The notes under the pieces were generated by a model. That model saw only the letters and a program-made list of their open reading frames with translations. It was not told the origin of the DNA and ran no database searches. Both the position numbers and the translations under genes were made by a program. 64,000 nt of DNA from Escherichia coli (lineage in GTDB: Bacteria; Pseudomonadota; Gammaproteobacteria; Enterobacterales; Enterobacteriaceae): assembly GCF_003334335.1 (NCBI RefSeq), contig NZ_QOWQ01000016.1. The stretch is one strand, 5' to 3'. Shown in pieces: positions 5,628 to 20,150 of this stretch. Numbering within the stretch: the first letter of the stretch is position 1; the number at the start of each line of letters is the position of its first letter.

Positions 5628-7424
5628 ATGCTTAAACGTTGTCTCTCTCCGCTCACCCTGGTTAATCAGGTTGCGCTTATTGTGTTGCTTTCTACTGCTA
5701 TTGGACTGGCAGGGATGGCGGTTTCTGGCTGGCTGGTGCAAGGCGTTCAGGGCAGCGCCCATGCGATCAACAAAGCGGGATCGCTGCGCATGCAAAGTTA
5801 CCGTCTGTTGGCGGCAGTGCCATTAAGCGAGAAAGACAAGCCCTTAATTAAAGAGATGGAACAAACGGCATTTAGCGCCGAGTTGACTCGAGCAGCAGAA
5901 CGAGACGGACAACTGGCGCAATTACAGGGTTTACAAGATTACTGGCGTAATGAACTGATCCCTGCGCTGATGCGTGCACAAAACCGAGAAACGGTGTCAG
6001 CGGATGTCAGCCAGTTTGTTGCCGGGCTTGATCAACTGGTATCTGGTTTTGACCGCACCACGGAAATGCGCATCGAGACAGTGGTACTGGTCCATCGGGT
6101 AATGGCGGTATTTATGGCACTTTTACTGGTGTTCACTATTATCTGGTTGCGGGCGCGACTGCTACAACCGTGGCGGCAACTGCTGGCAATGGCGAGTGCC
6201 GTCAGTCATCGCGATTTTACCCAACGCGCAAACATCAGCGGGCGCAACGAAATGGCGATGCTTGGAACTGCGTTGAACAATATGTCTGCAGAACTGGCCG
6301 AAAGTTATGCCGTACTTGAGCAGCGGGTTCAGGAGAAAACCGCCGGGCTGGAGCATAAAAATCAGATCCTCTCTTTTTTATGGCAGGCTAACCGCCGTTT
6401 GCATTCCCGCGCCCCGCTGTGTGAACGCCTGTCACCTGTACTCAACGGCTTACAGAATTTAACCCTGCTACGTGATATCGAATTGCGGGTGTATGACACT
6501 GATGATGAAGAGAATCATCAGGAGTTTACCTGCCAGCCAGATATGACTTGTGATGATAAAGGCTGCCAGCTCTGCCCGCGCGGCGTATTACCCGTTGGTG
6601 ATCGCGGCACGACCCTGAAGTGGCGGCTGGCTGACTCTCATACGCAGTACGGTATTTTGCTGGCGACCCTGCCGCAGGGGCGTCATCTTAGCCATGATCA
6701 ACAACAACTGGTGGATACCCTGGTTGAACAACTCACCGCCACGCTGGCGCTGGATCGCCATCAGGAACGTCAGCAACAGTTGATCGTGATGGAAGAGCGT
6801 GCCACCATTGCGCGCGAACTGCATGATTCTATTGCCCAATCTCTCTCTTGCATGAAGATGCAGGTGAGTTGTTTACAGATGCAGGGCGATGCGCTGCCAG
6901 AAAGCAGCCGCGAACTGTTAAGTCAGATCCGTAACGAACTGAATGCATCCTGGGCGCAGTTGCGTGAATTGCTCACCACATTCCGCTTGCAGCTCACCGA
7001 GCCTGGATTACGTCCGGCGCTGGAGGCGAGTTGCGAAGAGTACAGCGCCAAATTTGGCTTCCCGGTGAAGCTGGATTATCAATTGCCGCCTCGCCTGGTG
7101 CCTTCGCATCAGGCAATCCACTTGTTGCAAATTGCCCGTGAGGCATTAAGTAACGCCCTCAAACATTCGCAAGCGAGTGAAGTCGTGGTGACGGTGGCGC
7201 AAAACGATAATCAGGTCAAACTGACCGTCCAGGATAACGGCTGCGGCGTGCCTGAAAATGCCATCCGCAGCAATCACTACGGCATGATAATAATGCGCGA
7301 TCGTGCGCAAAGTTTACGAGGCGATTGCCGCGTCCGCCGTCGTGAATCAGGTGGCACCGAAGTGGTGGTCACCTTTATTCCCGAAAAAACTTTCACAGAC
7401 GTCCAAGGAGATACCCATGAGTAA
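5628..7424 (+). CDS. narX: Nitrate/nitrite sensor histidine kinase NarX
   Basis: 598-aa ORF with N-terminal TM region and C-terminal histidine kinase region ([11 protein letters not shown]... H-box); stop overlaps narL start (ATGAGTAA). Confidence 0.92.
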
Positions 7425-8067
7425 TCAGGAACCGGCTACTATCCTGCTGATTGACGATCACCCGATGCTGCGAACTGGCGTAAAACAGCTTATCAGTATG
7501 GCACCAGATATCACCGTGGTTGGCGAAGCGAGTAATGGCGAACAGGGTATTGAACTGGCGGAGTCTCTTGATCCCGATCTGATCCTGTTAGATCTCAATA
7601 TGCCCGGCATGAACGGTCTGGAAACGCTGGATAAACTGCGCGAAAAGTCCCTCTCAGGGCGCATTGTGGTATTCAGCGTCTCTAACCATGAAGAAGATGT
7701 GGTCACCGCACTGAAACGCGGCGCGGATGGCTATCTGTTAAAAGATATGGAACCGGAAGATCTGCTGAAAGCATTGCATCAGGCAGCTGCTGGCGAAATG
7801 GTATTAAGCGAAGCATTAACGCCTGTTCTGGCCGCCAGCTTGCGCGCTAACCGTGCCACTACTGAGCGCGATGTTAACCAGTTAACCCCACGCGAGCGCG
7901 ATATTCTCAAGCTGATTGCCCAGGGTTTGCCGAACAAGATGATTGCCCGCCGCCTGGATATCACCGAAAGCACAGTAAAAGTGCACGTCAAGCACATGCT
8001 GAAGAAAATGAAGCTCAAGTCTCGCGTGGAAGCAGCGGTATGGGTGCATCAGGAGCGCATTTTCTGA
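7417..8067 (+). CDS. narL: Nitrate/nitrite response regulator NarL
   Basis: 216-aa product [22 protein letters not shown]... with receiver domain and LuxR-type HTH; start overlaps narX stop. Confidence 0.92.
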
Positions 8068-9462
8068 TTACGGTTCCCAGCGCAGTTCGTCGTTTGACAA
8101 TGCATCGAACGGTTCGACAAGCGTTAGCGTGATCTCATTGGAGGAGACACGCTGCCCCTGGTTATCTTCCACCACCACAGACAATCGCCAGTGATTGCTT
8201 GCCCCTTCCCCGTTCTGCCAGTCAGGCATGATCAGCGTCCAGCCCTCCGCGCTGTTGGCTTGTGCGCCCGGCGTCAAACTTAATATCTGCGTATCGCCCT
8301 GCCAAATCAGTTGCCGAATACCGTAACGACTGCGGATTTGTAATTTCAGCGGCACTGTTTCGCCAGGTTTTAGATCCCACGGCGGTGTCGCCAGAAACAC
8401 CGTTAACGTTTTTCGCTGTCGGTACTCAAGAGTCGGTAGATTATTTCGCTGCGGATTGTCATAGCGACTACCACGTAACGACTGACTTTCGGCAACCTCG
8501 CCCGCAGAAAGTTGTTTTTTGAGCGGTACACCAAAGCGGTAATTAAGATTCAGCCCGAGGTTATTTTGATTTTCGCCACTTTCACCCTGTTTATGCTGGG
8601 CCGTCACAGTGACTAATGGCACAGGGGTGTAATTTAATCCCAGACTCAACGCGACGGGATTGTGATAACCCGTACCAGAGTTAAACAAATCAACACGATC
8701 ACCAAAATACTGTTCTAGGCTGACACTGGTATTGAGGTGTTGATAGAACGGCATGCGCATCCGAGCTGTCAGGTCGTACCCGCGCGCCATCCGTTGTTCC
8801 TGCGTGGCTGTCTGTTCATGCCATGCAGCAAACGGCTGATAAAAGTTTGCCGATAATCGCAAATATTCGCCCCACGCTTCGGCACCAAAGCCCGCTCGCT
8901 GAAGATTTTCGTCCAGCAAGTTGTCATAAAAAGTGTTATAACCCACCAGCCAGTTGCCGCGCGCCCAGCGTTGCCCAACGCCCACATTGCTCACCAACCC
9001 ATTATCCTGCTGAGTAAGACCAAGCTGGCTCCAGGTGAGATAACGATCATTATCTTGTAACGGCACAAACCAGCTTCCACGACTGCCGGTGAAATGTCCT
9101 TCGTTATCCACTTTGACGTCAACACTGGCATTTCCCCACGGTGATAGCCAGGACTCTACGTGCTGATTAACCTGTTGACTAAGCGCGTCGCGGACTTTTC
9201 CCAATGCGAAAGCTTTTGCCTGCTCGCCAGTATCCAGCCCGTTATCATTCATACTGGTTTCGCCGAAATCTTTCACAATTTCAGCAAAGTGTTTTTCCCC
9301 ATCATGATTTTCGGGAGCCATGCCTAAATCCGGCAGACCATCATTGTTATTATCAAAGGGATTTGCCGCTTTTTGCTCGAAGGTAGATTGTGCGTTAGCT
9401 GTACCGCCTGCTACAAGCAAGAGTAAATAAAACGGGATAATGCGAGGAACGAAACGGCTCAA
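8068..9462 (-). CDS. ychO: Putative invasin/intimin-family outer membrane protein YchO
   Basis: 464-aa ORF with signal peptide (MSRFVPRIIPFYLLLLVAGGTANA); position between narL and ychN matches K-12 synteny; exact start not verified. Confidence 0.75.
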   Translation of the reverse strand: MSRFVPRIIPFYLLLLVAGGTANAQSTFEQKAANPFDNNNDGLPDLGMAPENHDGEKHFAEIVKDFGETSMNDNGLDTGEQAKAFALGKVRDALSQQVNQHVESWLSPWGNASVDVKVDNEGHFTGSRGSWFVPLQDNDRYLTWSQLGLTQQDNGLVSNVGVGQRWARGNWLVGYNTFYDNLLDENLQRAGFGAEAWGEYLRLSANFYQPFAAWHEQTATQEQRMARGYDLTARMRMPFYQHLNTSVSLEQYFGDRVDLFNSGTGYHNPVALSLGLNYTPVPLVTVTAQHKQGESGENQNNLGLNLNYRFGVPLKKQLSAGEVAESQSLRGSRYDNPQRNNLPTLEYRQRKTLTVFLATPPWDLKPGETVPLKLQIRSRYGIRQLIWQGDTQILSLTPGAQANSAEGWTLIMPDWQNGEGASNHWRLSVVVEDNQGQRVSSNEITLTLVEPFDALSNDELRWEP

Positions 9463-9484
9463 AACGTCGGTAACTTCCGGTAAT

Positions 9485-12497: not shown

Positions 12498-12783
12498 CAG
12501 TTATATCTCCTCCGATGACGGTAATCGGGGGAGATAATATAAATTCCTGCTTATTGTATTTCTTCATACTACCTGGACAGGTCGTTAATCAGAATTGCGA
12601 GCCTGTACCACACCCTGCACGAAACCACTGCAACAGCTGTTGAAAAGCCGGAATGTACTCTTCATTGCAAACATTTCAGGGATGAAGTGAAGATGAATTG
12701 CGACGTAGTATCCACACCAAGCCGGCGTTATCCGGTGAGGCGCAATGTTGCGGGGCTTTATCCCTGGTGGCATTGGTTGCTGG

Positions 12784-12853
12784 AAAGAGAAAACCCCCGC
12801 ACGTTGAGAGGTAAAACCTGACAACAAAACGGGGGCTAATCTTGAAACCAGAC
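12784..12853 (-). ncRNA. rdl: Rdl antisense RNA (antitoxin of the ldr type I toxin-antitoxin pair)
   Basis: Minus-strand sequence gtctggtttcaagattagcccccgttttgttgtcaggttttacctctcaacgtgcgggggttttctcttt matches my recollection of Rdl and ends in a hairpin plus U-tract; sits just upstream of ldr on the opposite strand. Ends are approximate. Confidence 0.45.
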
Positions 12854-12900
12854 ACTTCAAGAATAGCCGCAAAATGTTGTCATTACAACAAGGCGGCTAT

Positions 12901-13008
12901 ATGACGCTCGCGCAGTTTGCCATGATTTTCTGGCACGACCTGGCAGCACCGATCCTGGCGGGAATTATTACCGCAGCGATTGTCAGCTGGTGGCGTAACC
13001 GGAAGTAA
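12901..13008 (+). CDS. ldr: Ldr-family small toxic peptide (type I toxin, 35 aa)
   Basis: Translation by hand: MTLAQFAMIFWHDLAAPILAGIITAAIVSWWRNRK, the characteristic Ldr peptide; missed by the ORF track because it is under 60 aa. Confidence 0.85.
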   Translation: MTLAQFAMIFWHDLAAPILAGIITAAIVSWWRNRK

Positions 13009-13057
13009 GGTGAAAACGGGCGTCAGGCTGCCGTGATGGCAATATGCGCCCGAAACC

Positions 13058-13089
13058 GGCCGCAGGGGTAACAGCCTGCGGCCTTTTTT
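13058..13089 (+). terminator. Rho-independent terminator downstream of ldr
   Basis: GGCCGCAGG-N8-CCTGCGGCC stem followed by TTTTTT. Confidence 0.7.
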
Positions 13090-13156
13090 GTATCCGGCAC
13101 CCATGAAAAAAGTCTTAACGCAGAACGCTAATACTTTATTTTTCAAGCAAAAAAGA

Positions 13157-14859: not shown

Positions 14860-15252
14860 TTACCCCAGTAACGGTACTTTTGTGGTGGCGAGTTTAATGA
14901 TGATGTACAGCACCACCAACGCCAGCGGGAAGGCAATAATGCGCGCCTGCTGACTGTGCATACGACGATAATCGAGTGCAATAAAACCCAAAACGATATA
15001 AATGATAACTCCAAACAGCTTTTCAGTCAGCCACTGTGCCTGCCCGGAAAATGGCAGGATGTGCGCTTTAGCCATCAACGCAATGCCGCTTAACAGTAAC
15101 AGCGTATCGACAACCGGCGGCACAATGCGCGTCCAGCGAGCAAATGCCTGTGGATGCTTCTGATAACGTAGCCAGAAACGTAAGGTTAATAGCCCAACAG
15201 AAAGCGCGATACTAATAAGATGAACACTAAGCAGTGTAGAAAAACTTGTCAT
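14860..15252 (-). CDS. sirB2: SirB2 / YchQ small inner membrane protein
   Basis: 130-aa hydrophobic ORF; 4-bp overlap with the prmC stop. Confidence 0.8.
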   Translation of the reverse strand: MTSFSTLLSVHLISIALSVGLLTLRFWLRYQKHPQAFARWTRIVPPVVDTLLLLSGIALMAKAHILPFSGQAQWLTEKLFGVIIYIVLGFIALDYRRMHSQQARIIAFPLALVVLYIIIKLATTKVPLLG

Positions 15253-16082
15253 TGATAATAGCGGCCGAGCGTTACGCGCTCGTTATCACCATAGTCACGG
15301 CAGGTTTCGACGTCATGATACCCCGCGAGGATAAATGCTTGTCGCACCGCTTCGCCCTGCTGCCAGCCATGTTCCAGAAGCAGAAAGCCGCCGGATACCA
15401 GCGCGTTACGCGACTGTTCGATGATATGCACGATGTCTGCCATTCCACTGTCTGCCGCAACCAGCGCAGTGAGCGGCTCAAAGCGGACATCGCCTTGTTG
15501 AAGATGAGGGTCCTGCTCGTCAATATACGGCGGATTGCTGACAATCATCGCAAACTGCTGCCCGGCTAGCGCGCTAAACCAGTCGCTTTGCAGAATGTGG
15601 ATATTTTTGATCGCCAGATGCTGGGCATTACGTTGTGCCAGGGAGACAGCATCAGGCATACGATCTACAGCGATAATTTCGCAGTCCGGGCGCTCGCTAG
15701 CCAGCGCAAGCGCAATCGCCCCGGTACCCGTCCCGAGATCGAGAATACGGCAAGGTTGTTCAGGCAACCGCGCCAGTGCCTGCTCCACCAGACACTCCGT
15801 ATCCGGGCGCGGAATTAAGGTCGCTGGCGAAACAAATAACGGCAACGACCAGAATTCTCGCACCCCGGTTAAATGAGCAATGGGTTCACCATCGCGACGA
15901 CGTGTCAGTAGCGCATCAAGTTGCTGACATTGTTCGTCAGTCAGCTGCGTTTCACCAAAGGCGAGAATAAAAGTACGCCCTCTGCCGGTAACATGCTCCA
16001 GCAGGATTTCAGCATCACGCCGCGGGCTTTCGCTCGCCTGAAGTTGGCTTATTGCTTCACGTAACCAGTGTTGATATTCCAT
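15249..16082 (-). CDS. prmC: Release factor glutamine N5-methyltransferase PrmC (HemK)
   Basis: 277-aa ORF with SAM-binding motif (ILDLGTGTGAIALALA) and NPPY motif; overlaps the prfA stop. Confidence 0.92.
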   Translation of the reverse strand: MEYQHWLREAISQLQASESPRRDAEILLEHVTGRGRTFILAFGETQLTDEQCQQLDALLTRRRDGEPIAHLTGVREFWSLPLFVSPATLIPRPDTECLVEQALARLPEQPCRILDLGTGTGAIALALASERPDCEIIAVDRMPDAVSLAQRNAQHLAIKNIHILQSDWFSALAGQQFAMIVSNPPYIDEQDPHLQQGDVRFEPLTALVAADSGMADIVHIIEQSRNALVSGGFLLLEHGWQQGEAVRQAFILAGYHDVETCRDYGDNERVTLGRYYQ

Positions 16083-17164
16083 TATTCCTGCTCGGACAAC
16101 GCCGCCAGTTGGTCGGCCTGATGTTCCTGGATAATCGGTTCAATCAGCATATCCAGCTTACCTTCCATCACTTCATCCAGGCGGTAGAGCGTCAGGTTGA
16201 TGCGGTGATCGGTAACGCGCCCCTGCGGGAAGTTGTAAGTACGGTTACGGTCGCTGCGATCGCCACTCCCCAGCAGGTTACGACGGGTAGACGCTTCGGC
16301 CTGTTGGCGTTTTGCCATTTCAGCAGCGTGGATGCGAGCACCGAGAACAGAAAGTGCTTTAGCTTTGTTTTTATGTTGTGAACGTTCGTCCTGACATTCA
16401 ACAACAATCCCGGTCGGCAAGTGAGTAATACGAATTGCCGAATCGGTGGTGTTAACGTGCTGACCACCCGCCCCTGACGAGCGGAAAGTATCAATGCGTA
16501 AATCTGCTGGGTTGATGTCCGGCAGTTCTGCGTCAGGCAGTTCTGGCATTACCGCAACGGTACAAGCAGAAGTATGAATACGACCCTGCGATTCCGTAGC
16601 AGGAACACGTTGCACGCGATGACCGCCGGATTCAAATTTCAGACGACCATACACACCATCACCGCTAATTTTGGCGATGATCTCTTTATAACCACCATGT
16701 TCACCCTCGCTGGCGCTCATGATTTCTACCCGCCAGCGGCGGGCTTCGGCATAACGGCTGTACATACGGAACAGATCGCCCGCGAACAGCGCCGCTTCGT
16801 CGCCGCCGGTTCCGGCTCGGACTTCGAGGAAGGCGTTACGTTCGTCATCAGGATCTTTTGGCAGTAACAGAACCTGTAATTGCTGTTCCAGTTGCTCGCT
16901 TTTTTCTTTAGCTTCGCGCAGTTCATCCTGCGCCATCTCACGCATTTCAGGATCATCGAGCATCATCTGTGCGGTTTCGATATCTTCCTGAACCTGTTGC
17001 CAGTCGGTAAAACAGCGCGAAACATCACTTAACTGCGCATATTCGCGTGATAATGCGCGAAAACGTTCCTGGTCGGCGATAGTTTGCGCGTCACCCAGCA
17101 ACGCCTGAACTTCTTCATGGCGTTCATGCAGGGCTTCCAGTTTGGCAACGATAGAAGGCTTCAT
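16082..17164 (-). CDS. prfA: Peptide chain release factor 1
   Basis: 360-aa ORF with GGQ motif ([11 protein letters not shown]) and PxT-type region. Confidence 0.95.
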
Positions 17165-18606: not shown

Positions 18607-19298
<692 letters not shown>

Positions 19299-19299
<1 letters not shown>

Positions 19300-20150
19300 T
19301 GCGGACACAGTGGCCCTCTCCGGCAAAACTTAATCTGTTTTTATACATTACCGGTCAGCGTGCGGATGGTTACCACACGCTGCAAACGCTGTTTCAGTTT
19401 CTTGATTACGGCGACACCATCAGCATTGAGCTTCGTGACGATGGGGATATTCGTCTGTTAACGCCCGTTGAAGGCGTGGAACATGAAGATAACCTGATCG
19501 TTCGCGCAGCGCGATTGTTGATGAAAACTGCGGCAGACAGCGGGCGTCTTCCGACGGGAAGCGGTGCGAATATCAGCATTGACAAGCGTTTGCCGATGGG
19601 CGGCGGTCTCGGCGGTGGTTCATCCAATGCCGCGACGGTCCTGGTGGCATTAAATCATCTCTGGCAATGCGGGCTAAGCATGGATGAGCTGGCGGAAATG
19701 GGGCTGACGCTGGGCGCAGATGTTCCTGTCTTTGTTCGGGGGCATGCCGCGTTTGCCGAAGGCGTTGGTGAAATACTAACGCCGGTGGATCCGCCAGAGA
19801 AGTGGTATCTGGTGGCGCACCCTGGTGTAAGTATTCCGACTCCGGTGATTTTTAAAGATCCTGAACTCCCGCGCAATACGCCAAAAAGGTCAATAGAAAC
19901 GTTGCTAAAATGTGAATTCAGCAATGATTGCGAGGTTATCGCAAGAAAACGTTTTCGCGAGGTTGATGCGGTGCTTTCCTGGCTGTTAGAATACGCCCCG
20001 TCGCGCCTGACTGGGACAGGGGCCTGTGTCTTTGCTGAATTTGATACAGAGTCTGAAGCCCGCCAGGTGCTAGAGCAAGCCCCGGAATGGCTCAATGGCT
20101 TTGTGGCGAAAGGCGCTAATCTTTCCCCATTGCACAGAGCCATGCTTTAA
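19299..20150 (+). CDS. ispE: 4-diphosphocytidyl-2-C-methyl-D-erythritol kinase IspE
   Basis: 283-aa GHMP kinase ([14 protein letters not shown] motif); start overlaps the lolB stop. Confidence 0.93.

Follow-up and report, generated by a model that had tools for sequence, protein, structure and literature searches.

Ordinary compact gene junctions around narX, narL and ychO in Escherichia coli, with probable Rho-dependent termination of narXL within the convergent gene

The tightly packed gene junctions in the narXL-ychO region of Escherichia coli are ordinary junction types of a compact chromosome and exceed nothing that is normal for the E. coli genome. We consider it very probable that they are to be read in the documented way: overlaps within operons would allow translational reinitiation, and narXL transcription would run antisense into the convergent gene ychO, where it would be terminated by Rho. 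The junction types are textbook material, and the narL/ychO pair is already contained in genome-wide datasets of overlapping transcripts and of Rho-dependent termination; new in this analysis are the cross-species counts for narL/ychO convergence, for the gap between the two genes and for the narX/narL overlap. The window, i.e. the whole stretch of 64,000 nucleotides that was analysed, is part of an E. coli chromosome close to that of K-12. The junctions are composed of the following features, the coding sequences being taken from the RefSeq annotation mapped to the window and the narX/narL overlap and the Shine-Dalgarno sequence from direct reading:

5628 to 7424, plus strand: narX coding sequence (nitrate/nitrite sensor kinase)
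7405 to 7410, plus strand: Shine-Dalgarno sequence AAGGAG of narL, located within the 3' end of narX, with the ATG 6 nt further
7417 to 7424, plus strand: overlap of narX stop and narL start, 8 nt, ATGAGTAA
7417 to 8067, plus strand: narL coding sequence (response regulator)
8065 to 8070, both strands: abutting convergent stop codons, gap 0, narL TGA at 8065-8067 (plus) and ychO TAA, read as TTA, at 8068-8070 (minus)
8068 to 9462, minus strand: ychO coding sequence (inverse autotransporter invasin)
15249 to 15252, minus strand: overlap of prmC stop and sirB2 start, ATGA, 4 nt
16080 to 16084, minus strand: overlap of prfA stop and prmC start, TAATG, 1 nt in common (16082)
19297 to 19301, plus strand: overlap of lolB stop and ispE start, TAATG, 1 nt in common (19299)
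50998 to 51002, minus strand: overlap of umuD stop and umuC start, TGATG, 1 nt in common (51000)

Direct reading and the transferred RefSeq annotation agree on the narX/narL overlap and on the direct adjacency of the narL stop to the ychO stop on the opposite strand, both of which had been described in an earlier note on this DNA, and the overlaps that it had listed for lolB/ispE, sirB2/prmC, prmC/prfA and umuD/umuC were all found where it had placed them. An error of about 1070 nt in these other coordinates was considered and rejected: they are right for the window, and the apparent offset relative to MG1655 arises because this strain carries one ldr copy and MG1655 three. The start codon of ychO is the unusual TTG. 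A scan against Rfam detected no known RNA family at any junction, the only matches being rdlD and C0299, which are both located elsewhere.

The spacings at the five co-directional junctions (-8, -4, -1, -1 and -1 nt) all lie inside the coupling range of -8 to +6 nt, and coupling is known to drop sharply once the spacing exceeds about 10-20 nt (PMC10666635). Within the window, nine of 28 co-directional pairs fall into the range of -8 to +6 nt; the genome-wide figure for E. coli is 707 of 2987 pairs (24%), with -4, -1 and -8 nt as the three most frequent configurations (PMC10666635). The geometry is identical to that of known coupled stop/start overlaps (the ATGA, TAATG/TGATG and ATGNNTAA classes), from which the pairs of the window do not differ structurally. 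The proposal of the earlier note that the overlaps are consistent with translational coupling is supported by these classic termination-reinitiation geometries and by the retention of the narX/narL overlap together with the upstream AGGAG in 55 of 78 species; the overlap measures -8 nt in these 55 and -4 nt in a further five, and an (A/G)GGAG Shine-Dalgarno sequence in front of narL is kept across species. Judged from overlap geometry, a ribosome terminating on the upstream gene would thus be expected to reinitiate on the next one at narX/narL, prmC/sirB2, prfA/prmC, lolB/ispE and umuD/umuC. Since narL possesses a strong Shine-Dalgarno sequence of its own, de novo initiation may contribute there. 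For sirB2 and umuC, no obvious Shine-Dalgarno sequence was seen in the few upstream bases inspected.

With a gap of 0 nt there is no room for a terminator between narL and ychO, as the earlier note had remarked, and a hairpin-plus-U terminator was found nearby on neither strand. A scan with an intrinsic-terminator consensus gave seven weak matches near the junction as compared to 4.0 ± 2.2 in shuffled sequences, and the folds of five segments around it were no more stable than shuffled sequence (z between -0.7 and +1.2). The sole plausible candidate on the minus strand, a ychO-strand hairpin running from 7999 to 7983, was rejected, as all six pairs are present in only four of 51 species and its U-tract is poor. 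Consensus scan, folding and the lack of hairpin conservation together led us to reject the idea that either gene contains an intrinsic terminator for its convergent partner. How a hairpin-terminated junction looks is illustrated within the window by ychN/chaC, which has the same convergent orientation as narL/ychO and possesses a bidirectional intrinsic terminator: its 43-nt spacer contains a GC-rich hairpin (GGGGCGTCTGACGCCCC), and the Term-seq 3' end there is strong. At narL/ychO, both the spacer and a stable GC-rich hairpin at the gene ends are missing. In Pectobacterium and Yersinia, where space is present after narL, an intrinsic terminator was likewise missing at this position, and the hairpin-independent termination of narXL therefore looks ancestral.

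The earlier note had proposed a read-through analysis at this junction, and such a check has in effect already been published. Direct RNA-seq with and without bicyclomycin revealed that the narL-strand transcript is terminated by Rho within ychO (PMC7815308, supplementary file 2). The termination region is assigned to MG1655 position 1274961 on the minus strand and classed as antisense to ychO, with a Rho score of 10.6 (p = 5e-14); downstream and upstream reads amounted to 6 and 101 without bicyclomycin and to 408 and 649 with it (PMC7815308), which corresponds to an about 10-fold increase of narXL read-through upon inhibition of Rho. By coordinate calibration, this position lies at about 8285 of the window, about 210-220 nt beyond the narL stop; it is coarse, because the comparison windows spanned 800 nt and a single growth condition (aerobic LB) was used. 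The curated Term-seq 3' ends of the same study include none for narL or ychO (PMC7815308). Two further features can be placed in this part of the window:

8148 to 8245, plus strand: C-rich, G-poor, rut-like stretch of the narXL read-through RNA, antisense to ychO codons (C/G 2.1-2.3)
8250 to 8320, plus strand: approximate Rho-dependent termination region of narXL (PMC7815308; resolution hundreds of nt)

Between +81 and +178 past the narL stop, the C content is 0.41 and the G content 0.18-0.19, so that a C-rich, G-poor RNA segment of the expected length (about 80 nt) is present beyond the stop codon, untranslated and upstream of the termination zone. An excess of C over G at +101 to +175 after the narL stop is present in 80% of 60 species. 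The skew originates from codon position 1 of ychO, third positions being not significant (p about 0.06, with species that are not independent of one another). Selection for a rut site was accordingly rejected, the amino acid composition of YchO explaining the C-over-G bubble in the absence of a skew at synonymous sites; the stretch is therefore possibly used by Rho, yet bears no sign of selection. The narXL case resembles other Rho-dependent antisense terminators in convergent neighbours in its bicyclomycin sensitivity, in the C-rich, G-poor region upstream and in an end more than 50 nt past the stop codon, and differs from them in that the putative rut site is known from base composition and the termination position is coarse. 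Of the 1078 Rho termination regions, more fall into the class "antisense" than into any other (PMC7815308).

In the sequence of events that we favour, RNA polymerase transcribing narXL would pass the narL stop and go on antisense into ychO, Rho would load on the untranslated C-rich, G-poor RNA about 80-180 nt downstream of that stop, and transcription would end roughly 200 nt past it. We infer the exact Rho loading site on the narXL RNA and likewise the way in which the ychO transcript ends. Roughly the last 200 nt of the narXL mRNA would thus form a tail that is antisense to the ychO mRNA at its 3' end, and the two transcription units would therefore overlap. In agreement with this, ychO-narL belongs to a set of 165 convergent pairs whose transcripts overlap in 50% or more of 58 RNA-seq datasets (PMC12288877, Table 1; 2025, NAR), so that the transcript overlap of a convergent excludon is observed for this pair in published data. 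At a gap of 0 nt, any 3' UTR at all results in an overlap. As to the frequency of tight convergent pairs, we rely on published counts, according to which 75 of roughly 700 E. coli pairs overlap outright (PMC4161906).

A ychO gene convergent with narL is present in 62 of 80 Enterobacterales species, and in 50 of these 62 the gap measures between -4 and +6 nt, down to a YchO identity of 45%. The stop codons themselves change and the gap slides among -4, 0, +1, +2, +3 nt and other values; ychO has been wholly lost in E. albertii, and narL occurs without ychO in many Enterobacterales. The neighbouring convergent pair ychN/chaC keeps its spacer, which never falls to 6 nt or below, and is a weak control because it could be measured in 10 loci only. 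Most simply, the zero spacer would be the neutral outcome of deletion bias at a place that contains no spacer element in need of preservation.

The same observations could be taken to mean that the spacer-free arrangement is a selected excludon, in which antisense overlap leads via interference or RNase III cleavage to mutually exclusive expression of the nitrate regulator and the adhesin. The listing of ychO-narL among the published excludons (PMC12288877), the persistence of the tight tail-to-tail arrangement across 50 species and the spacer retained at ychN/chaC argue for this possibility. The genes of excludon pairs lie closer together than those of other pairs (PMC12288877). However, deletion bias predicts a tight gap equally well where nothing in a spacer is required, the sequence of the junction is not conserved, the overlap region lacks a signal at synonymous sites, E. 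albertii has lost ychO, and many Enterobacterales have narL alone. Moreover, about a quarter of the convergent pairs of E. coli (165 of a published total of 704) pass the same coverage criterion, and we found no reciprocal expression data for ychO-narL. Membership in the ExcludonFinder map is assigned from RNA-seq coverage alone, whereas a functional excludon is defined by mutual exclusion and RNase III processing. We therefore regard a selected excludon as unlikely. Also quite unlikely is the corresponding proposition that selection has kept the gap within -4 to +6 nt from Escherichia to Serratia because the obligatory antisense overlap couples the nitrate response regulator and the YchO adhesin in their expression; if it were true, the "pleiotropic" phenotype of published ychO knock-outs would in part reflect altered narL expression.

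It is very improbable that both transcripts are ended, instead of by Rho, by head-on collision of RNA polymerases at a bidirectional boundary defined by a hairpin. Termination by collision has been proposed for hundreds of convergent pairs of E. coli (Ju et al. 2019; Wang et al. 2022), with 306 bidirectional terminators reported between convergent genes, and narL/ychO is such a pair without a classical terminator; an RNA hairpin at the boundary is however needed to fix the site, and none is present here. Such terminators are furthermore described as Rho-independent, in conflict with the effect of bicyclomycin, and as most effective in highly expressed pairs, whereas the reads at this locus are low (101 upstream). 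We found no support for an annotation artefact by which one of the two genes would really end elsewhere and the stops would not abut, a notion raised only by the start codon of ychO; we give it practically no credence, since the stop codons are unambiguous, the RefSeq annotation agrees and, in dozens of species, both frames stay uninterrupted and show homology right up to the final residues.

The value of the spacer-free junction as a discovery is small, and two modest practical points can be made. As narL and ychO have remained without a spacer in most Enterobacteriaceae and in some Yersiniaceae, they offer a clean example of convergent genes in which each coding sequence serves the partner as 3' UTR and termination zone. 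In addition, a deletion of ychO necessarily takes out the termination region of narXL, and this holds for published knock-outs whose cassette was put right behind the narL stop. In the APEC ΔychO mutant the cassette directly adjoins the stop codon of narL, and effects on narL should therefore be checked before phenotypes are credited to YchO alone.

A second tight convergent pair of the window, ycgR/emtA, was absent from the list in the earlier note:

38391 to 38397, both strands: near-abutting convergent stop codons, gap 1, ycgR TGA at 38391-38393 (plus) and emtA TAA, read as TTA, at 38395-38397 (minus)

About 260 nt beyond the emtA stop, a region of Rho termination is located on the strand opposite to ycgR (PMC7815308), and emtA-ycgR is, together with ychH-dauA and ymgM-cvrA, among the pairs of the window that are also contained in the ExcludonFinder map of E. 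coli (PMC12288877).

The narX and narL genes, encoding the nitrate/nitrite sensor kinase and a response regulator, and the opposite-strand gene ychO, encoding an inverse autotransporter invasin, are packed without spacers. RefSeq gene calls were moved onto the window coordinates, with a clean translation verified for each gene, and define the following features:

5628-7424, plus strand: narX
7405-7410, plus strand: Shine-Dalgarno sequence AAGGAG at the narX/narL junction
7417-7424, plus strand: narX/narL overlap of 8 nt, ATGAGTAA
7417-8067, plus strand: narL
8065-8067, plus strand: narL stop codon TGA, directly abutting the ychO stop codon
8068-8070, minus strand: ychO stop codon TAA (reads TTA), gap to the narL stop 0
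15249-15252: prmC/sirB2 overlap, ATGA
16082: prfA/prmC overlap, TAATG
19299: lolB/ispE overlap, TAATG
38391-38397: convergent ycgR/emtA junction, with the ycgR stop TGA (38391-38393, plus strand), one base, and the emtA stop TAA (38395-38397, minus strand)
51000: umuD/umuC overlap, TGATG

The earlier note had listed the narX/narL overlap, the abutting narL and ychO stops and the four other co-directional overlaps, and all were found where it placed them, in the junction sequence as well as in the transferred calls; ycgR/emtA, a second convergent pair nearly as tight as narL/ychO, was absent from it. The junction is confirmed as real, correctly read and already known. The RefSeq annotation also contains a 39-aa hypothetical open reading frame that shares 40 nt with ymgJ in the same orientation (58733-58772). 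Overlaps linked to coupling are typically shorter, and this one may be an artefact of small-ORF annotation.

Tight junctions are not more frequent in the window than expected for E. coli. Spacings of -8 to +6 nt occur in 9 of its 28 co-directional neighbour pairs, and in 707 of 2987 such pairs (24%) in E. coli overall, where overlaps of 4, 1, and 8 nt are the three commonest co-directional layouts (PMC10666635). Two of the 13 convergent pairs have gaps of 0-1 nt, the others 43-749 nt. Since 75 of the approximately 704 convergent pairs of the E. coli genome overlap outright (PMC4161906), a zero gap is among the tightest spacings but is not rare. Judged by their geometry, the co-directional overlaps are of the standard types associated with translational coupling, and coupling is plausible; for narX/narL, the 8-nt overlap and its AGGAG are kept in 55 of 78 species. 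In the narL loci L041, L042, L046, and L047 (Klebsiella), L030 (Yokenella), and L043, the TAA of the ATGNNTAA overlap is lost (ATGAGTCAA...), and the predicted narX frame extends 38 or 260 nt into narL to the next stop.

The absence of room for a terminator between narL and ychO, as read in the earlier note, is supported by the zero gap, by the lack of any conspicuous hairpin nearby and by published termination of the narL strand inside ychO. A consensus scan of 3 kb found seven weak terminator-like sites compared with 4.0 ± 2.2 in shuffled sequence, and none of five folds computed for the two strands near the junction was more stable than shuffled sequence (z -0.7 to +1.2). A 6-bp stem inside narL (7999->7983), the only plausible terminator of the ychO transcript, was rejected, because its U-tract is poor and all six pairs are retained in just 4 of 51 species. 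Between +81 and +178 past the narL stop, the read-through RNA is strongly enriched in C (0.41) and poor in G (0.18-0.19). Rho prefers RNA of this kind. The published data settle where transcription of the narL strand ends: a Rho termination region of the class antisense to ychO was mapped at MG1655 position 1274961 on the minus strand (Adams et al. 2021; PMC7815308, supplementary file 2), with upstream/downstream reads of 101/6 without and 649/408 with bicyclomycin (Rho score 10.6, p = 5e-14). Calibrated through the ychN Term-seq 3' end, which is printed with its flanking sequence in PMC7815308, this region falls at about window position 8285, directly downstream of the C-rich stretch and roughly 210-220 nt beyond the narL stop. 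The position is coarse, since it derives from a comparison of 800-nt windows (PMC7815308). No sharp Term-seq 3' end is curated for narL or ychO in that study (PMC7815308), consistent with diffuse, Rho-dependent ends and with weak expression in aerobic LB. A further Rho region lies antisense to ycgR, approximately 260 nt past the emtA stop (PMC7815308), so the two spacer-free junctions of the window behave alike. The zero gap would place the 3' UTR and termination zone of each gene inside the other; for narXL, Rho ends transcription roughly 200 nt inside ychO.

The C-rich stretch could be exploited by Rho, with no evidence of selection for it. The excess of C over G at +101 to +175 is present in 80% of 60 species and stems from G-initial ychO codons (position-1 skew +0.21 there vs +0.06 in the rest of the gene), whereas third positions, in species that are not independent, do not differ significantly (p ~0.06); the composition thus follows from the amino-acid sequence of YchO.

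The comparison of narL loci from 80 species is new in the present analysis. A convergent ychO homologue directly follows narL in 62 of them, and in 50 of these, from Escherichia to Serratia and Rouxiella (YchO identity down to ~45%), the coding ends lie within -4 to +6 nt: -4 nt in 23 species, with shared-stop motifs such as CTAA, TTAA, and CTAG, 0 nt in 12 and +1 to +6 nt in 15. Distances of 7-46 nt occur in only 9 species. The junction stays tight though the stop codons themselves vary. In three species (L054, Shimwellia; L055, Entomohabitans; L016, a MAG) the usual ychO stop is apparently lost and the frame reads 48-54 nt antisense into narL, reflecting either a longer convergent overlap or a sequencing error. 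In E. coli and Salmonella, the neighbouring convergent pair ychN/chaC, taken as a control, is separated by 40-42 nt that contain a GC-rich hairpin, and its spacer is never ≤6 nt in this small control of 10 measurable loci. Pectobacterium, Dickeya, Yersinia, and Hafnia have no ychO beside narL and 14-300 nt after it; neither of two ychO-less loci scanned contains a hairpin terminator after narL, so narXL appears never to have used an intrinsic terminator. In E. albertii (L004, 4152-4452), ychO is deleted (the equivalent of window 8212-9481, start codon included), 144 nt of its 3' end remain beside narL, and narL lies ~300 nt upstream of the co-directional ychN.

ychO-narL is among 165 convergent pairs with overlapping transcription units in 50% or more of 58 E. 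coli RNA-seq datasets (ExcludonFinder, PMC12288877), as are emtA-ycgR, ychH-dauA, and ymgM-cvrA from the window (PMC12288877), and a regulatory excludon, with mutually exclusive expression, is conceivable. However, the stops slide among species, a synonymous-site signal is absent, some lineages have lost ychO, and roughly one in four convergent pairs in E. coli shows the same transcript overlap; for these reasons, neutral compaction explains the gap better. Bidirectional termination driven by collision at the junction fits poorly, as the boundary hairpin is absent and narL read-through is Rho-sensitive.

The geometry bears on an APEC ΔychO mutant, for which the recombineering homology arm (window 8018-8067) ends at the narL TGA (PMC4787180), so that the inserted cassette abuts narL and takes the place of the entire narXL termination region. 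narL and nitrate are unmentioned in that paper, and the main phenotypes were complemented in trans (PMC4787180); the reported "pleiotropic" transcriptome could include narL effects.

The 4.1-kb stretch around the junctions matches E. coli chromosomes, K-12 MG1655 among them, at 100% identity, and the whole window aligns colinearly, in inverted orientation, with the narG-ycgH region of MG1655 (~99.9% identity). The ldr/rdl type I toxin-antitoxin repeat is present once (12618-13091) vs three 535-bp copies in MG1655, leaving the window ~1070 bp shorter after 13091; because of this difference, distant coordinates in the earlier note had first seemed off against the MG1655 annotation. Among 5426 complete E. 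coli genomes, ~1330 match the single-copy layout over 80% or more of the query. In a few E. coli records matching the junction stretch (H1-H3), IS481- or IS3-family insertions lie inside narX-narL-ychO and break the match in two. The autotransporter gene ycgV carries three copies of the 10-bp unit CTGCTGATAG close to its 5' end (26350-26379), one more than the two of MG1655. This additional copy alters the reading frame, so the intact ORF begins at 26471 (876 aa) instead of 26224 (955 aa in K-12), a pattern suggestive of slipped-strand variation affecting an adhesin gene.
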